From IMG/VR virus record IMGVR_UViG_3300025413_000010: a stretch of 64,000 nt of DNA; one strand, given 5' to 3'. A model generated the notes under the pieces. The model was not told where the DNA came from. It searched no databases and worked only from the letters and a program-made list of their open reading frames with translations. Positions 5,953-34,001 of this stretch are shown here, piece by piece. Position 1 is the first letter of the stretch. Every line of letters begins with the position of its first letter. Source of the stretch: a virus. The position numbers and the translations under genes were made by a program.

Positions 5953-7779
5953 TTAAAACGAAAGAGTCAAATTAATATTTTCGGTTTGCGTGTTTGATCT
6001 TGTGATTGGTGTAATGTTTTCAACATAAAGGATGTCACCACTACCTTGAATAATATCAGGAAGCGTTTCACTATATATGCTGAAATTCGCTTGACTTTTC
6101 GCACCAATTAATGAAGACCCAACTGGAAACAGACCCATTTTGTTTGTAACTACAGCTGTTGTGCTATTAGAAAATAGGCAAACTGCGGTATTTCCTGAAG
6201 AAGAATTTGCTCCAATATAAACAATTTCACCATTTGAGAATCCTTGCGAGAGGAATGCTCCAGTATACGTATATGTTTGGTTGAAGGTAGTAAAGCCTAC
6301 AGAACCTTTATTTCTTCCTGAAATGACAGCGTTTGCTGTCAAATACGTATTTACCCCAGAAGTGCTTCCGTAAATAGAGTTAGAAGTACTGTTTCCTGTT
6401 ACAAATTTTCCATTAACATTCGTTAAATACAGCGCACCATTAATTGTATCAAAAGAAACGATTTTACCGAAAGCTCCAGTTGCTGGCTGGGTTACATTTT
6501 CTCCACGAACAAAATTGCTAATACTTGACACATCGACATAGACGTTTGCAAATTGAGGATCTCTTACGATGCCTACTGTTCTATATGTACCTGATGCGTA
6601 AATTGTATTGCTTATACTATTAGCAAACTTTGCGCTTACTGAAACGTATTTGGCATTAAGCTCTTCAATAGGATTAGCCCCATGGCCTTGTATTGGGCTG
6701 ATTACAGCCGCTACTACAGCAGAATTAGAAATCCCAACAATAGGCGCAGAATAAACAGATGCAACAGCAGAGCTATAACCTTGTCCTTGAGAAAGTATGG
6801 TGATATTGTTAATTGCTGTCGATGAAGAATTTACAACAGCAATAGCATATGCGTTTGATGTTTGATATCCATCACCAGTAATTACAACTTTAGGACCAAC
6901 AACAAATGTATCATTCGGTTGGGCTAAATTCTGTAAAGAATTGACTAGAGTAATTATAACTCCGCCATATGTTGGATTATAAACAGAACTTGCAATTTCA
7001 GCATAACTACCAACAGAAGAGCCACCATTCATGTATAGGTAGCATCCTTGATAGTAGTTTGTTGTTGTGTTTGCAGTGCTAGGTAGCATATACTGGATTG
7101 GATTGCGGCTGTTTGTTCCAGTAAAATAGATTTGATTATACGATAAAGTTCCTGTTAGATAATTATTATATCCGGATCCACCATTCGATATTTTTATTTT
7201 GTTAATTGTTCCAGGAATAGCCGCAGAAACAACTGAAGTGTTAGCGATAACAGGAATGTAGTTTGTTGTGGCAAAGGTACTGAATGCAGTAGAGCTTATG
7301 CTGAACATGTATTTCCAATTATAACCATCGCTTGTGAAATAGAAATTTCCAAGAGAAGCAGCTTGAGATTTAACTGGAGTTACTGTCGATGCTGCGCCGT
7401 TATTATTGTCCAAACATTTGAATACGTCGTAGTATGAACCGTTTTGAACACCAACATAAAATTGAGATGAATACAATGAAGAATTAGTATCATCATATGG
7501 CGTATATACTGTACCCGAGGCCCAGTCATATCTATTCACTGCTAAGTTTACGTTTGTTGAGTTTAATTTGACTCCAAACAACATATCTTGCCAATAATTG
7601 TGTCTTGTTGTTTGAATATTATCAACTGGAGTATCAATTACAGTATCACCCTGAGAAAACGGAGTAGGCTTACCTGCGAAAACATAATACGTTGAATTTG
7701 ATGTAGAAACGCTATTTGCAAATTCCATTGCATTGTGCATTCTATACAAATTCGTAATTGTTTGAATATATGAAGCCAT
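5953..7779 (-). CDS. gp8: Baseplate wedge subunit gp8
   Basis: RYDWASGTVY, VFKCLDN, DGYNWKYMF, GHGANP, SGDILYVEN motifs; synteny. Confidence 0.85.
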   Translation of the reverse strand: MASYIQTITNLYRMHNAMEFANSVSTSNSTYYVFAGKPTPFSQGDTVIDTPVDNIQTTRHNYWQDMLFGVKLNSTNVNLAVNRYDWASGTVYTPYDDTNSSLYSSQFYVGVQNGSYYDVFKCLDNNNGAASTVTPVKSQAASLGNFYFTSDGYNWKYMFSISSTAFSTFATTNYIPVIANTSVVSAAIPGTINKIKISNGGSGYNNYLTGTLSYNQIYFTGTNSRNPIQYMLPSTANTTTNYYQGCYLYMNGGSSVGSYAEIASSVYNPTYGGVIITLVNSLQNLAQPNDTFVVGPKVVITGDGYQTSNAYAIAVVNSSSTAINNITILSQGQGYSSAVASVYSAPIVGISNSAVVAAVISPIQGHGANPIEELNAKYVSVSAKFANSISNTIYASGTYRTVGIVRDPQFANVYVDVSSISNFVRGENVTQPATGAFGKIVSFDTINGALYLTNVNGKFVTGNSTSNSIYGSTSGVNTYLTANAVISGRNKGSVGFTTFNQTYTYTGAFLSQGFSNGEIVYIGANSSSGNTAVCLFSNSTTAVVTNKMGLFPVGSSLIGAKSQANFSIYSETLPDIIQGSGDILYVENITPITRSNTQTENINLTLSF

Positions 7780-29462: not shown

Positions 29463-30374
29463 TCAATCTTCTTCTTCAGCGATTCGCTTAAAGAACGATA
29501 GATCTTCATCATCCTCATCAGTGTTCCAAAGAGTTGCATCCTCTTCAGCTTCATGAGCTGCAGGCTTTGCGCGAGCAGCAGGAGCAGAAGCAACTGGACC
29601 AGCGTCAGTATTACCACGCGAGTCAATACCAAGAACTTGATGGAGACGACGCTTCAGTTCGTCATAGCTCTTGAATGTCGAAGGATCAATGATTTCCTGC
29701 AATGAGTACTCAGACTTCCAGATCTTTTCAAGTTCCGAGTCCTTGTCAAGAAGAGGAGCGATATCATCAAACTCCGACTTATCGTAGTTACGATAACCGT
29801 CGACCTTACGGATCTTGAGCTTGAAGTTAGCGCCTTCCCAGAGATCAAAAGGATTCATAGGAGTTTCATCTTCGAACTGAGGATGCATAGCTGCATTCAG
29901 CTTTTCGAAAATCTTCTTACCGTACTTGAACAGGAAAACCTTACCGTCGTTTTCGGGATTAGCTGGATCTTTAACAACATAGATGTTAGAGATATAACCT
30001 AGACGGCGCTTCTGGTCGCGAGCTTGCTTACGTTCAGGCGACTTATCGTCGTCCGAAGCGTTCCAAAGCTGGCTGTTGAATTCAGCGCAAGGATCTTTCT
30101 GATTGATAGTTGTCAGAGACTTTTCGATGTACCAACCATTGGGTCCCTTGAAACCATGATCCCAAAGACGGACGAAAGGTACAGTTTCATCGCCAGGCGA
30201 AGGAAGGAAACGGATAATGGCATAACCATTACCAGCCTTATCTACGGTTGGCGACCAATATCGATTATCTTCTGCGTTGTTTTCAGTCTTGTTTGCGAGC
30301 TTATTGATCTCGGCGGTCAGACTTTCAAGCGATGCGAGACCGCTCTTCTTCTTAAGGTTTGCAAATGTTGACAT
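29463..30374 (-). CDS. gp32: Single-stranded DNA-binding protein gp32
   Basis: DKAGNGYAIIRFLP, HGFKGP.GWYIE, FKYGKKIF, PFDLWEGANF, NYDKSEF, acidic tail. Confidence 0.95.
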   Translation of the reverse strand: MSTFANLKKKSGLASLESLTAEINKLANKTENNAEDNRYWSPTVDKAGNGYAIIRFLPSPGDETVPFVRLWDHGFKGPNGWYIEKSLTTINQKDPCAEFNSQLWNASDDDKSPERKQARDQKRRLGYISNIYVVKDPANPENDGKVFLFKYGKKIFEKLNAAMHPQFEDETPMNPFDLWEGANFKLKIRKVDGYRNYDKSEFDDIAPLLDKDSELEKIWKSEYSLQEIIDPSTFKSYDELKRRLHQVLGIDSRGNTDAGPVASAPAARAKPAAHEAEEDATLWNTDEDDEDLSFFKRIAEEED

Positions 30375-30450: not shown

Positions 30451-31029
30451 TCAAGCAAAAACTTTCAAGATAATTTTTTTCATTTTAAAAATATCATATG
30501 GCACAAAAGGTGCATATTTCTTGCATTTCAGTCGCACTTCTTCCCAAACAAGATCACCATCAAGTTTACTGTCCCAGTAGCGAAAAATCCCACAGGCTTT
30601 GTCTAGGATAATAAGAGTCTCGATATTGATTTTGTTTTGGAGGAACAGCTTTAGCAGTTTAGGGTATTGTCCATCTATAACTTTGATAGAGTCATCAAAA
30701 GATGGTAACAGCTTATCTAAATCTTGTTCGAAAATGTAGCTGATAGATTCATTTCTACGCTTCCATTCAAGATATGTGTCAGTATATTTGGATTCAGCAA
30801 CCAAATCACCAACCCATATATTATACCCGTATTTGACAAAATTAGCAACTATAAAATTGACAGGATCATCTTTTTTTGCTAACTTGTGATACATGTACTT
30901 GTCTTTACGGGTTTCGAAAGAAGTTTTGCTCGCCCGTGTTTTTCCATTGTACAGAAAGTAATCGTATTTCGGTTTAGAAAAATGATTCTTTAAGGCAATG
31001 AAAAGTTTATATGCCTCAACAGCTTCCAT
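30451..31029 (-). CDS. gp59: Helicase loader gp59
   Basis: ALKNHF....YDYF.YNGK, F..RKD, IETL.IL, KY.PF. Confidence 0.9.
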   Translation of the reverse strand: MEAVEAYKLFIALKNHFSKPKYDYFLYNGKTRASKTSFETRKDKYMYHKLAKKDDPVNFIVANFVKYGYNIWVGDLVAESKYTDTYLEWKRRNESISYIFEQDLDKLLPSFDDSIKVIDGQYPKLLKLFLQNKINIETLIILDKACGIFRYWDSKLDGDLVWEEVRLKCKKYAPFVPYDIFKMKKIILKVFA

Positions 31030-31268
31030 TAGATCGGCAGCTTTGATGACTTAGGTAAGAAATTTAAAGATTCTGCTTCTTCTTGAATCTTGCTTCTCAT
31101 AATCGCATTATTCTTAACCATTGACGCCACAGATTCTACTTCGATATTTCTTTTTTCGCAGTAGAAAACTATGGCGTCAAGGTAATCAAGATTATGTTTC
31201 TTCACAAGATCGTCGATTTCCCTCACAAAATCAGTAGAATTCTTAATAAACGGGACGACGTCTTTCAT
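31029..31268 (-). CDS. gp33: Late transcription coactivator gp33
   Basis: YLDAIVFYCE..NIEVES, EAESLNFL.K..KLPI. Confidence 0.9.
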   Translation of the reverse strand: MKDVVPFIKNSTDFVREIDDLVKKHNLDYLDAIVFYCEKRNIEVESVASMVKNNAIMRSKIQEEAESLNFLPKSSKLPI

Positions 31269-31271
31269 ACT

Positions 31272-31820
31272 TTATCCTTTGTTTACATAAAAATAGTGTT
31301 GTCCAATTTGGGCAATTCTAACATAGCCCAATAGATGCCAGTGCGGGTGAATATAGTTAGCATGATAGAATTGAGCGCCGCGTGTAATGTCAGCACAGAT
31401 ACCGTGATATACTTGATATGCAACAGTTTTACTGTCCTGATATGTAGTACTCGCATACATGATAGGTCTATTTCTCATACAAACCCAAGAGAACTGACAA
31501 ACTCTACCACGCTTCTGTCTTACGACTTTACATGGAGTATTACCAAATCTCTTATCGCCAACTCGATTCATAACAACCTGAGTTACGGCAATTTTACCCT
31601 TAATAGACTGATTTCCTGCTTCATAATAAGCATTTTGTGCAAGACAATCAATCTGTTGTTTATCGTAGTTAGATTCATTAACGACTGGCTTTCCGAAAAC
31701 TTCAGCTTTTGGTGTATTTGCTCGAGCTGTTTCTGAAAAACTCATTATTACAACACTCAAACAAACCAGTGCAATTATAACAATATGACCAAAAGACTTA
31801 ATTTTATCGAATAGTAACAT
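31272..31820 (-). CDS. SleB/CwlJ-type cell wall hydrolase (Hydrolase_2)
   Basis: CLAQNAYYEA, AVTQVVMNRV, CQFSW, GAQFYHANY, IGQHYFY; start placed at ATG 31820 behind RBS AAGAGGA. Confidence 0.88.
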   Translation of the reverse strand: MLLFDKIKSFGHIVIIALVCLSVVIMSFSETARANTPKAEVFGKPVVNESNYDKQQIDCLAQNAYYEAGNQSIKGKIAVTQVVMNRVGDKRFGNTPCKVVRQKRGRVCQFSWVCMRNRPIMYASTTYQDSKTVAYQVYHGICADITRGAQFYHANYIHPHWHLLGYVRIAQIGQHYFYVNKG

Positions 31821-31829
31821 TCGTTCCTC

Positions 31830-32061
31830 TTTTAAATTAACGATTCTGGCGATTGCATGTGTCCTTATAGAGCGTCTCATCTCGTGACAGTGATACAATG
31901 CTAAAAGAAGATACAAATAATGGATACTCTCGGGTATCTTCTAGTCCATCTCCCTCTTACTGGAGTTGCAAAATCATTATGCTTTTATGGCGGTAATCCG
32001 CTGCTTTCTTCTGAAAGCTATGTAAGAGCTCATGGAGGCCATGCCTCCGATTATATTTATA
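31830..32061 (-). promoter_or_regulatory. Late promoter (32054-32061) and about 220-nt structured 5' leader of the hydrolase gene
   Basis: TATAAATA; hairpins GGAGGC/GCCTCC, GCTTTC-AGAA-GAAAGC, GCGG-ATTA-CCGC, stems CTCTTAC/GTAAGAG and AGAAGATAC/GTATCTTCT. Confidence 0.5.
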
Positions 32062-32110
32062 TAAGTCTTAGAAATTATTTTATCGGTTGGACTTATTTTT
32101 GTAACGTTTG

Positions 32111-32218
32111 AACTTAGAAGAACACTGACTGATACCTGCACTTCTCACCGTGTGCTTTTCGAGTCGCGATCCCTAGATATCCGCGTGGCGTTATTCGTTG
32201 TCAGTGTTCATCAAAGTT
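32111..32218 (-). ncRNA. Candidate structured ncRNA module A
   Basis: Closing stem AACUUUGAUGAACACUGAC / GUCAGUGUUCUUCUAAGUU; no ORF. Confidence 0.55.
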
Positions 32219-32386
32219 TGCTGGGTACTATCGCTCCGTTTAAGGGCAATCGCTATACGTAGCCCCCCTAGAATAAATCTTTCATCGGTTGCGCCGAACA
32301 TCCCACATAGTGGCGGTTATCAGCTAGGGTGATGATCTTCCTCGATAGTTAGGATCTTGCGTTCTTTTGCTCGGACCCAACAAAAC
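32216..32386 (-). ncRNA. Candidate structured ncRNA module B
   Basis: Begins right after late promoter; closing stem UUUGUUGGGU / ACCCAGCAAA; inner CCCUAG/CUAGGG stem and hairpins. Confidence 0.55.
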
Positions 32387-32387
32387 T

Positions 32388-32395
32388 TATTTATA
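32388..32395 (-). promoter_or_regulatory. T4-type late promoter with no ORF downstream
   Basis: TATTTATA on + strand. Confidence 0.65.
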
Positions 32396-32630
32396 CCACG
32401 GTTTACCGCGTGACAGGAAAACTTACCACTAGGGCGGGATACTTGCTCTGAATCTTTGACTCGGGAACTTCTTCCTCTGTCCCACATTCTCGGTTTTCTC
32501 TCTTATTACGACCAGGCTTAATGTTGTTTAAGCCCTTTGCTAGTACCTGATTTCAACAAAGCAGTATCAGTCAAGTTAACTGTCTTACTATGCATTCACC
32601 AGGCTTTTCCTGCCCCTCGATAAACCGTGG
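32396..32630 (-). ncRNA. Candidate structured ncRNA module C (about 235 nt)
   Basis: Closing helix CCACGGUUUAUCG/CGGUAAACCGUGG then GGCAGGAAAA/UUUUCCUGUC; inner hairpins GGCUUAA/UUAAGCC, GGGAC/GUUCCC, stem UUGACU/AGUCAA. Confidence 0.6.
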
Positions 32631-32637
32631 AGCTAAA

Positions 32638-32744
32638 CTTAGAAGAACCTACGATATGGAGCGCCCTCTCCACGGCAGCCACCAACGTCTTCGTCAAGAC
32701 TTATTCCGGTGGTAGAACCCGTCGGCAAAGTAGGTTCATCTAAG
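32638..32744 (-). ncRNA. Candidate structured ncRNA module D
   Basis: Closing stem CUUAGAUGAACCUAC / GUAGGUUCUUCUAAG enclosing three hairpins. Confidence 0.6.
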
Positions 32745-33040
32745 TGGTGGGATTCTGTTGCTAGGTTCCCACCAAACCCCGAAAGATCATGCTGCTAGAG
32801 CAAGATTTCCATATGCGCTGTTATCGTTTGCATCTACGTTTATTTAGCCACTCGGCCAGCGAATCAGTCTCGAATCTTCCTATTCCGCCCAAGTCGATCC
32901 TAGTTCACCCCCATCAACTACTACGGTAACAATCCCTGACTTTGCGCGAAGTACTCGACACGAGTATCGTAGTAGATGGTGGAGGTGACGGGTACTGCCC
33001 CCGTGTCCTCTAGACCTTTATTGTTGATTGTCAACAACTG
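32743..33040 (-). ncRNA. ssrA: Circularly permuted (two-piece) tmRNA
   Basis: Acceptor piece ends ...GGGGGCAGUACCCGUCACCUCCACCA (3' end 32977); spacer 32913-32976; coding piece starts GGGGGUGAACUAGGAUCGAC (32912); G3:U70 pair; tag ANDNSAYGNLALAA-stop at 32787-32831; outer ends approximate. Confidence 0.93.
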
Positions 33041-33050
33041 ATAAAATTAT

Positions 33051-34001
33051 TTATGCTGCTTCAGCGTATTCCACAGCAAGATTAAGAGCCTTAACCTTAC
33101 GTTCCTTGTTAGCGCCAAACCAGCTGTTATACAGACGAGTATCAGCAGTACGACCAAGTTCGTGATCAGTCAGATACGTAACAGCATTAAATGCCTGCCA
33201 CCAACTACCTTCAGCATAACGAGCGCCAGGCTGTTCATGAACAATAGCCAAAGCCAATTCAGCAGCACGAGACAGATCATTAGATTCTTTATTAGACGAA
33301 GGAAATACCTGATTAAAATACTCAGTCATTGTTTCGCCAGTATAACGCTTTGACCCAAGAAATGCAGCCATTTCCTTATAGGTGTTCAGCTTATCCTTAG
33401 CAATACCCAGAGTTTCCTTCACAGTATCGCCATCAAAAGCACGACGATGATCAACACGAAGCATCTTATCAGCCTTAGTCGAAAGCGACAGCGAAAGAGT
33501 GTTCATACAAACAACACGGATGGGAGTAAACTGAACAGTAATCGACTTACCAAACTGATGAGGATTACTGAACAATAGATAAGATTCAACCTTATCTCCA
33601 CCGAAAAGATCAAACCCTTCATTTACCTTAGCCAAAGCCCAAACATACTGACCGTTACGCAGAGAACCAGCAGTATGCATCTGCATGTCACCATTACCGA
33701 TAAAGTCATTGAAGAATTCGAAGGCTTCGCTATTCTGACAAGGAACCCAATTCTGAGTAACAACGTCAAGAATACGATCATCGCTCGAACGAACTAGAGC
33801 TTCACGCCCAGTATATACGTTCCGACCATTCAGCTCAACATGAAGAGGAACCTTACGAACTTCCCAGTTAAGACCAGCTTCCTTCATCATTTGCTCGGGA
33901 GTAAGATCGCCGTGAACAGCCTTACCAAGACCATGCCAAGGGGTATCCCCAACATAAGCCATCTGAGCTTCACCATTAACAAACTCAAGTTCATGTGCCA
34001 T
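33051..34001 (-). CDS. DUF932-family protein
   Basis: MAHELE, PWHGLG, QN.EAF.FF, TAGSL, TPIRVVC.NTL, W.AFNAVT. Confidence 0.85.
   Translation of the reverse strand: MAHELEFVNGEAQMAYVGDTPWHGLGKAVHGDLTPEQMMKEAGLNWEVRKVPLHVELNGRNVYTGREALVRSSDDRILDVVTQNWVPCQNSEAFEFFNDFIGNGDMQMHTAGSLRNGQYVWALAKVNEGFDLFGGDKVESYLLFSNPHQFGKSITVQFTPIRVVCMNTLSLSLSTKADKMLRVDHRRAFDGDTVKETLGIAKDKLNTYKEMAAFLGSKRYTGETMTEYFNQVFPSSNKESNDLSRAAELALAIVHEQPGARYAEGSWWQAFNAVTYLTDHELGRTADTRLYNSWFGANKERKVKALNLAVEYAEAA

Follow-up and report, generated by a model that had tools for sequence, protein, structure and literature searches.

GOLLD and ROOL are large, ornate RNAs associated with phages and located near tRNA genes, and Correia/NEMIS elements are miniature inverted repeats with a TA duplication whose co-transcribed hairpins are cut by RNase III. 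In phage T4, the small non-coding RNA genes rnaC and rnaD (species 1 and 2 RNAs) are co-oriented and contiguous with tRNA-type genes, beside segB, which encodes a GIY-YIG endonuclease. SegB causes the T4 tRNA region to be inherited preferentially (PMC2330249), and phage tRNA regions matter against tRNA-cleaving host defences, with SegB-type endonucleases spreading or amplifying them (PMC13096335, PMC2330249). An intact tRNA-Ala has been described within the intervening sequence of a permuted transfer-messenger RNA (tmRNA), so this segment can act as a slot that carries a passenger RNA (PMC11915505). Here we describe an island of structured RNA modules in a 64,000-nucleotide (nt) stretch of virus DNA (IMG/VR record IMGVR_UViG_3300025413_000010, the whole of which is hereafter called the window), whose source is a large T4-like freshwater phage. 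The island is 632 nt long (window 32744-32111, minus strand), adjoins a two-piece tmRNA gene and is composed of four hairpin-closed modules, in the order D, C, B and A. The interpretation that we favour, with modest confidence, is that it represents a cluster of separable stable-RNA cassettes which use tmRNA/tRNA-type expression and processing and are exchanged as a block between phage lineages.

In regard to the T4 RNAs, the analogy with RNAs C and D drawn in the initial annotation of the window holds for the layout and fails for homology. Here as well, putative small non-coding RNA genes are found in a T4-type phage, co-oriented and contiguous with tRNA-type genes (the island adjoins the tmRNA, and a homologue of module B adjoins a tRNA-Ser in the related locus L162), while in the relative L101 they lie beside a Seg-like GIY-YIG open reading frame (ORF). 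By our reading of its sequence, T4 rnaC has a tRNA-like T-arm and acceptor end, as does a module termed X in locus L213. However, the covariance models built for module B (R1) and module A (R2) have no match in the T4 region (L206), and no homology was seen by eye. The island also differs in having a two-piece tmRNA as its neighbour, in its four modules, one of which behaves as an insertion, in the recurrence of one of its cores within tmRNA intervening segments, and in the demonstrable exchange of the cluster between lineages. Similarly to GOLLD and ROOL, it is structured, non-coding, several hundred nucleotides long and located in phage DNA next to tRNA-type genes, but it has no Rfam match at E<10 and does not constitute one RNA, C being dispensable and A and B occurring separately elsewhere.

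The initial annotation described this stretch as lacking a credible ORF, and the present analysis agrees. The longest minus-strand ORF within 32111-32744 has 55 amino acids (aa) and is not conserved: it crosses the border between C and B, and C is an indel; in addition, indels between B homologues are not multiples of 3. The whole interval between the DUF932 and hydrolase genes, about 1,230 nt, is without a credible ORF, and its GC content reaches 0.44-0.52, compared to about 0.35 in the flanks. The reported lack of RNase P, signal recognition particle (SRP), 6S and tRNA signatures was likewise borne out: a cmscan search of 31700-33200 at E<=10 returned only tmRNA models and two chance matches outside the island, nothing in Rfam at E<10 was found in 31830-32742, and among the families of Rfam 15 the island matched no RNase P, SRP, 6S, tRNA, group I intron, riboswitch, self-cleaving ribozyme or GOLLD/ROOL model. 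In the relatives L101, L103, L108, L099, L213, L214 and L162, Rfam gives tmRNA and tRNA alone. Resemblances by eye to hammerhead and HDV-like ribozymes, to ykkC and c-di-GMP-I riboswitches and to RNase P RNA were dropped due to the lack of a model match or the wrong order of motifs.

The division into four modules also stands. The unconstrained minimum free energy (MFE) fold of 32100-32745 (minus strand) returns four successive hairpin-closed domains at the positions originally assigned (z=-3.0), with sense-strand z-scores of -3.7 for D, -5.2 for C, -2.3 for A and -1.1 for B. Natural variants mark the same borders and are stronger evidence than the fold. Module C (32633-32396) is exactly missing in L097, L103, L107 and L110, the covariance model of B spans 32213-32388 and that of A 32105-32222, and the block common to a second phage lineage extends from about 32745 to 32111, its limits coinciding with the outer ends of D and A.

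Two of the modules carry most of the argument, since B and the core of A (A-core) are in all probability genuine structured RNAs, as judged from covariation. Module B has diverged homologues in L162 (7685-7855, 4 nt before a tRNA-Ser and about 750 nt upstream of the L162 tmRNA) and in L213 (215-391). Its predicted structure is built of a closing helix P1 (UUUGUUGGGU/ACCCAGCAAA), a hairpin YCCU/AGGR, the loop of which (ACUAYCG) is paired with CGRUAGU beside P1, a helix CCCUAG/CUAGGG bearing a variable arm, and a hairpin GGGC/GCCC; two supported helices cross, which makes B, as predicted from the aligned sequences, a pseudoknotted RNA. With four sequences aligned, this structure (38 pairs, 7 helices) is 96% paired, and 6 pairs (8 cells) are changed on both sides, distributed over 6 of the 7 helices, compared to 0-1 in slid controls. 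Model R1 scores 162-216 bits on the members of the family and found nothing beyond them in about 1.4 Mb of related loci; the B pattern has no match in 185,579 prokaryote genomes, and the sole match of a stricter pattern, L205, is equal to L162. The module is always closely followed by a tRNA, a tRNA-like module or A, namely by A in the window, by tRNA-Ser in L162, and by a hairpin and module X in L213.

Some further structures were observed around the B homologues. Directly past the tRNA-Ser of L162 (7950-8030) stands a tRNA-like sequence, GGGGGCAGG...CUGGUUCAAAUCCAGGACCCCCG, which is not called by ARAGORN or Rfam, and it is followed by a related repeat, GGGGCAGACCGCAUGG. In L213, the sequence past the B homologue (392-560) forms a hairpin GGGUGGA...UUCCACC-ACU, resembling the terminal hairpin of tmRNA, and then module X. 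No tmRNA was found in the 10-kb L213 locus by Rfam or ARAGORN.

The A-core, of about 75 nt, contains a helix P2 (GAUAUCU/AGGUAUC), the hairpins P3 and P4 (the latter GCAC/GUGC), a small two-pair hairpin and a predicted loop-loop contact C(G/A)CC:GGUG (CGCC:GGUG in the window). A 23-nt pattern derived from it was found in 15 IMG/VR contigs and in three contexts: in the island; in the intervening segment of the tmRNA, which separates the CCA end from the start of the coding piece (L096/L100/L160, L099/L106/L158 and L105); and, in L108, in a long hairpin that precedes the tmRNA by about 150 nt. Pattern matches in L112, L113 and L114 are chance occurrences in coding DNA, and that in L218 is a terminator hairpin. 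The alignment of module A holds six distinct sequences from about three independent lineages; 99% of the cells pair over its 33 pairs, 8 pairs (15 cells) are changed on both sides compared to 0-2 pairs in slid controls, and several A-core pairs pass through G.U intermediates on the sense strand. The covariation points to real, though moderate, support for the A structure. Model R2 gave no additional members in about 1.4 Mb of related loci, and in prokaryote genomes the A pattern yielded no more than a chance match. No description of these RNAs was found in the literature search, and both families, as far as sequence comparison defines them, are new in the sense that they are absent from Rfam and from the literature searched.

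Expression of the modules could be explained by two promoters. The internal late promoter placed by the initial annotation was recovered: the motif TATAAATA is present at 32388-32395, directly 5' of B, and it lies within a 12-mer, GTATAAATAAGT, that occurs identically before the tRNA cluster of the window (40538-40549) and before the L101 tmRNA. The B homologues are preceded by CATAAATA in L162 and TATAAGTA in L213, and the start of B is always 5-7 nt past a late-type promoter, an arrangement also seen for the tmRNA and the tRNA cluster. The minus strand of the island was found to hold no intrinsic terminator, and it is therefore proposed that D and C would be transcribed through read-through from the tmRNA promoter. 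B and A would be transcribed from the internal one.

Processing could follow the route of tmRNA itself. Module D is closed by the stem CUUAGAUGAACCUAC/GUAGGUUCUUCUAAG with one U.U mismatch, and a stem form 5' U(A/U)GAU(G/A/U)(A/C)AC... / ...GU(G/U)U(A/C/U)(A/U)UCUA(A/U)G 3' is common to D, A, module X of L213 and the A copy of L108. The same form is the stem of tmRNA intervening segments in this phage group. The leader of this form, UUGAU|, also stands before the coding piece of the tmRNA at its mature 5' end, and the trailer, UUCUAAG, recurs after the CCA of the tRNA that has a CUA anticodon. In module X, which has an extended acceptor-type stem, a canonical T-arm (GUUGG UUCGAGU CCAAC) stands directly before the 3' strand of the stem, giving it a tRNA-like appearance, and it is not called a tRNA by ARAGORN. 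The long leader/trailer stems (17-26 bp) may be cut by the host enzymes that mature tmRNA and/or by RNase III, and cleavage by RNase P at ...UUGAU|G, together with 3' trimming, would free small RNAs of about 100-240 nt. In the last step, these RNAs might act in trans on host or phage proteins, which is the weakest part of the proposed mechanism.

Intervening segments bounded by this stem are extremely variable. Across 65 loci, 33 distinct segments of 27-149 nt were recorded, with interiors falling into at least 24 unrelated classes and with a GC content of about 0.5, above that of the genome. Segments differ even between close relatives: L096 and L156 have acceptor pieces that are 100% identical and coding pieces that are 95% identical, yet the former carries a 94-nt A-core segment and the latter an 87-nt T-loop segment, while the segment of L086 (6068-6094) is a minimal 27-nt hairpin. 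Canonical T-loops were seen in two interiors, those of L156 (8473-8559) and L066 (3726-3814). Similarly to the tRNA-Ala passenger (PMC11915505), the A-core of L096, L099 and L105 follows the acceptor CCA and precedes the start of the coding piece, and because of this position it would be released by tmRNA maturation. In contrast to that case, the passenger here is a junction RNA with no Rfam match, the window copy is located outside the tmRNA in the same type of stem, and at least 24 unrelated interiors are present in this phage group. The use of the intervening segment as a variable slot and the mobility of the cluster are likewise absent from Rfam and the literature searched.

Exchange between lineages is indicated by the distribution of identity along the locus. 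In L098, L101, L104, L109 and L111, the segment 32779-32111 is 97.6% identical to the window, while the DUF932 and gp32 DNA of the L101 lineage is only 66-71% identical. From D to A, 10 substitutions were counted in 632 nt (98.4% identity) between the window and the second lineage, whereas the adjacent tmRNA hairpin is about 84% identical, with compensatory substitutions, and the right flank is unalignable; downstream of the island, the L101 lineage carries other genes and no SleB. The ends of the transferred block are the inverted sequences ACTTAGATGAAC ... GTTC(T/A)TCTAAGT, which are the outer half-stems of D and A. Contigs carrying the exact hydrolase gene of the window end 34-161 nt inside the island, as is typical of assemblies at sequence common to co-occurring genomes. 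In 29 other relatives the hydrolase leader follows 100-240 nt past the tmRNA without an island, longer gaps hold ORFs, and the island is thus an insertion in comparison with the common layout. Loci anchored on SleB (33-45% aa identity) have ORFs and no island between tmRNA and SleB, and those anchored on DUF932 (IMG/VR and JGI metagenomes, at most 65% identity) are mostly without it. From these comparisons, the island is a horizontally exchanged unit.

A candidate agent of exchange is present in the L101 lineage, where the stop codon of the tmRNA tag and the terminal hairpin are parted by an 840-nt insert that holds, on the opposite strand, an ORF of 256 aa. Over 73 aa, its product shares 34% identity with the GIY-YIG domain of T4 SegB (pairwise BLASTP, E 6e-7), and it has no sequence match in Pfam, PHROGs or PDB. 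A leader sequence similar to that of this gene occurs in L058, where it adjoins an ORF of 144 aa located after the tmRNA and before the leader of the hydrolase gene. By analogy with T4, co-conversion would be a reasonable cause of the near-identity of the islands, which may spread via homologous recombination or co-conversion in co-infection, aided by the neighbouring homing endonuclease.

The two remaining modules are less clear, and it is doubtful that all four are functional RNAs. Module D is confined to window-type and L101-type phages and is always found with the island. Its MFE is -41.4 (z -3.7), while the interior alone has a z of +0.2. Three substitutions distinguish the copies of the two lineages; in an alternative fold, with CCACCGG/UUGGUGG around GUCUU/AAGAC and then GUGGAG/CUCCAU, two of them change G.U to A-U and the third is placed in a loop. 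This is compatible with RNA structure in the model, and is no proof of it. For module C, the z is -5.15 when the sense strand is folded (9 G.U pairs) and -2.5 for the antisense strand, and this asymmetry would favour structure at the RNA level. Its inverted ends CCACGGUUUA...UAAACCGUGG form a long interrupted closing helix.

The initial annotation read the stretch as a polycistronic RNA operon processed into several stable RNAs. Part of this is retained: the island is non-coding and modular, lies on the strand of the tmRNA, has its own late promoter and no intrinsic terminator, and includes conserved structured RNAs in the A-core and B. The case is weaker for C, which behaves as an insertion element, and for D, whose interior holds no signal beyond the stem. 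The collection of homologues for covariation, also proposed there, gave compensatory changes in the A-core and B, while the known copies of C and D are all at least 98% identical.

Several observations weigh against the interpretation as stable-RNA cassettes. Covariation is drawn from only 3-4 independent lineages per family for A and B, which makes its support moderate, and nhmmer detected no diverged homologues of C or D. The MFE z of B is only -1.1, the negative z of D and A derives mostly from the closing stems, and the interiors of D, A and 25 other modules of the intervening-segment type fold no better than shuffles (mean z -0.15). However, the A-core also does not differ from shuffles in MFE z despite its covariation, and the measure is uninformative here for that reason. 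The resemblance of leaders and trailers is short, and part of it (UAAGGAG) belongs to the context of ribosome-binding sites. The window copy has no endonuclease gene beside it, and because of this, endonuclease-driven transfer is an analogy only. The motif TATAAATA occurs 7 times in the window compared to 5.9 expected by chance, so that the promoter call rests on its position and on the common 12-mer.

The duplicated TA of module C, together with its imperfect inverted ends (about 25 bp) and its clean empty site, speaks for an alternative, which is unlikely as an account of the whole island and likeliest for C and D, that the modules are mobile or recombination cassettes at the DNA level, miniature inverted-repeat or stem-bounded, with RNA that has no function of its own and hairpins that are merely terminal inverted repeats read as RNA. 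The terminal repeats of C, CCACGGTTTA...TAAACCGTGG, are imperfectly extended to about 25 bp. Where C is cleanly missing (L097, L103, L107 and L110), the empty site, taken from L103, reads AAGTT-TA-TAAATAAG, and the filled site reads AAGTT-TA-GCTCCACGGTTTA...TAAACCGTGG-TA-TAAATAAG, with a 2-nt TA duplication, which can also arise from deletion microhomology. From this organization, C would be classed as an insertion element. It resembles Correia/NEMIS elements in its size of 238 nt, its ends, the TA duplication and the long hairpin in the transcript, and it differs in being single-copy wherever searched and in belonging to a lytic-type phage genome with no transposase seen. The remaining support for cassettes at the DNA level comes from the common termini of D and A, ACTTAGATGAAC...GTTC(T/A)TCTAAGT, which also bound the transferred block, from the near-identity of the island in diverged phages beside a GIY-YIG gene, from intervening segments swapped wholesale between near-identical tmRNA genes, and from interiors that fold no better than shuffles. 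On the other hand, every module is single-copy in the 64-kb window and in the 68-kb and 128-kb contigs of relatives, and the 18-nt end of C has no second copy in all of IMG/VR either; no transposase gene was seen nearby. Furthermore, in the A-core and B, pairing on the sense strand survives by compensatory changes and G.U intermediates, which a DNA repeat would not need, and C folds much better on the sense strand. C was also considered as a group I intron. Its border agrees with the rule for such introns (AAGUU|UAGCUCC...CCGUGG|UAUAAAUA, with U before the 5' border and G last), although the TA duplication permits other placements of the border. C is not classed as one, given the lack of an RF00028 match at E<=10, its location between a hairpin trailer and a promoter instead of within an RNA or protein gene, and the pairing of its ends in a helix of about 26 bp.

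It is considerably less probable that the island is an extended 3' coding piece of the tmRNA, or a by-product of tmRNA rearrangement, acting only in cis on stability, folding or 3'-end formation. D begins at the last bases of the tmRNA model, ARAGORN carries its tmRNA call on to 32696, no terminator separates tmRNA and D, the stems of D and A are like that of the intervening segment, and the hairpin before D is like an acceptor stem followed by ACU. However, the alignment to the Rfam model stops at 32743, and most relatives have only 100-240 nt, with no island, between the tmRNA and the SleB leader. In L101 the 840-nt endonuclease insert parts the tag frame from the hairpin and the island, which has a different history from the tmRNA (98.4% vs about 84% identity for the adjacent hairpin), and B is preceded by a promoter of its own and is found at a distance from a tmRNA (L162) or in a locus with none (L213).

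A role as a long cis-regulatory 5' leader of the SleB-like lysis gene, suggested by the position of the island upstream of that gene on the same strand and by the existence of a conserved structured leader with covariation at 31821-32062, is largely excluded by synteny, since that leader is served by a late promoter of its own (32061-32054) and recurs, with no island, in at least 62 loci, the L101 island is followed by other genes with no SleB, and A-core and B occur without a downstream protein gene. The leader itself adjoins the island and is not part of it. In 16 non-redundant sequences, 16 of its 50 predicted pairs have a compensatory change, and the pairing between AAUGAUUUUG and CAAAGUCAUU, directly 5' of the hydrolase ribosome-binding site, suggests translational control of the lysis enzyme.

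The positions of the modules and of the neighbouring features are collected below.

Coordinates of the island modules, the adjoining genes and the related features in other loci (window positions unless a locus is named)
Feature	Coordinates	Strand	Remarks
Module D	32638-32744	minus	107 nt, hairpin-closed, directly past the tmRNA terminal hairpin
Module C	32396-32633	minus	candidate 238-nt insertion, ~25-nt imperfect inverted ends, duplicated TA flanks
Late promoter	32385-32396	minus	T4-type, GTATAAATAAGT, directly 5' of module B
Module B	32213-32388	minus	~170-nt structured RNA, two diverged homologues and a covariance model
Module A	32111-32218	minus	outer stem UUUGAUGAACACUGAC / GUCAGUGUUCUUCUAAG (intervening-segment type) around the ~75-nt A-core
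Two-piece (circularly permuted) alpha-type tmRNA	32743-33089	minus	RF01849 118 bits, RF04321 105 bits (Rfam); permuted tmRNA by ARAGORN
DUF932 protein gene	33051-34001	minus	
Structured 5' leader of the hydrolase gene	31821-32062	minus	second late promoter 32061-32054; adjoins the mobile island
SleB-like cell-wall hydrolase gene	31272-31820	minus	
gp33-like late co-activator gene	31029-31268	minus	
gp59	30451-31029	minus	
gp32	29463-30374	minus	
SegB-like GIY-YIG homing endonuclease gene	L101:8432-9202; also L103:11253-12023	minus (L101)	own TATAAATA promoter
L096 tmRNA intervening segment	L096:6513-6599		

In the wider setting, a blastn search with 31800-33100 gave zero matches among the cultured phages of the INPHARED collection, and the exact hydrolase protein of the window is also encoded on contigs of up to 286,645 bp. 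By sequence reading, the acceptor piece of the tmRNA has its CCA end at 32977 and is followed by the intervening segment (32976-32914) and the coding piece, whose first base is 32913; the frame of the tag covers 32837-32787 (VDANDNSAYGNLALAA followed by the stop codon), and the terminal hairpin GGUGGGA...UCCCACC occupies 32773-32746. The tRNA with the CUA (amber-reading) anticodon, at 40108-40181 on the minus strand, is the last of a five-tRNA cluster; ARAGORN names it tRNA-Pyl, Rfam scores it as a tRNA with 54.7 bits, and a TATAAGTA box stands shortly upstream. In L052, a second partial match to the tmRNA coding piece (6825-6914) was observed about 350 nt past the first, and the tmRNA may be partially duplicated in that phage.

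It could be speculated, at rather long odds, that the intervening segment and the hairpins with the same stem (D, A and X) form one cassette system, in which the tRNA/tmRNA maturation enzymes of the host express rapidly exchangeable small structured RNAs, with the A-core and B as the first recognisable families, shuffled among co-infecting phages with the aid of Seg-type endonucleases and selected as decoys or inhibitors of RNA-directed host defences. Small stable RNAs riding with tRNA-type genes in T4-type phages are a kind already known. To this, the locus adds two new RNA families with covariation support, defined borders and a promoter, and it demonstrates from natural variation that RNAs of this kind are moved between phages as cassettes. 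In two-piece tmRNAs, the excised intervening segment is a slot for very diverse passenger sequences and, if these passengers are functional, tmRNA maturation would double as a production line for small RNAs.

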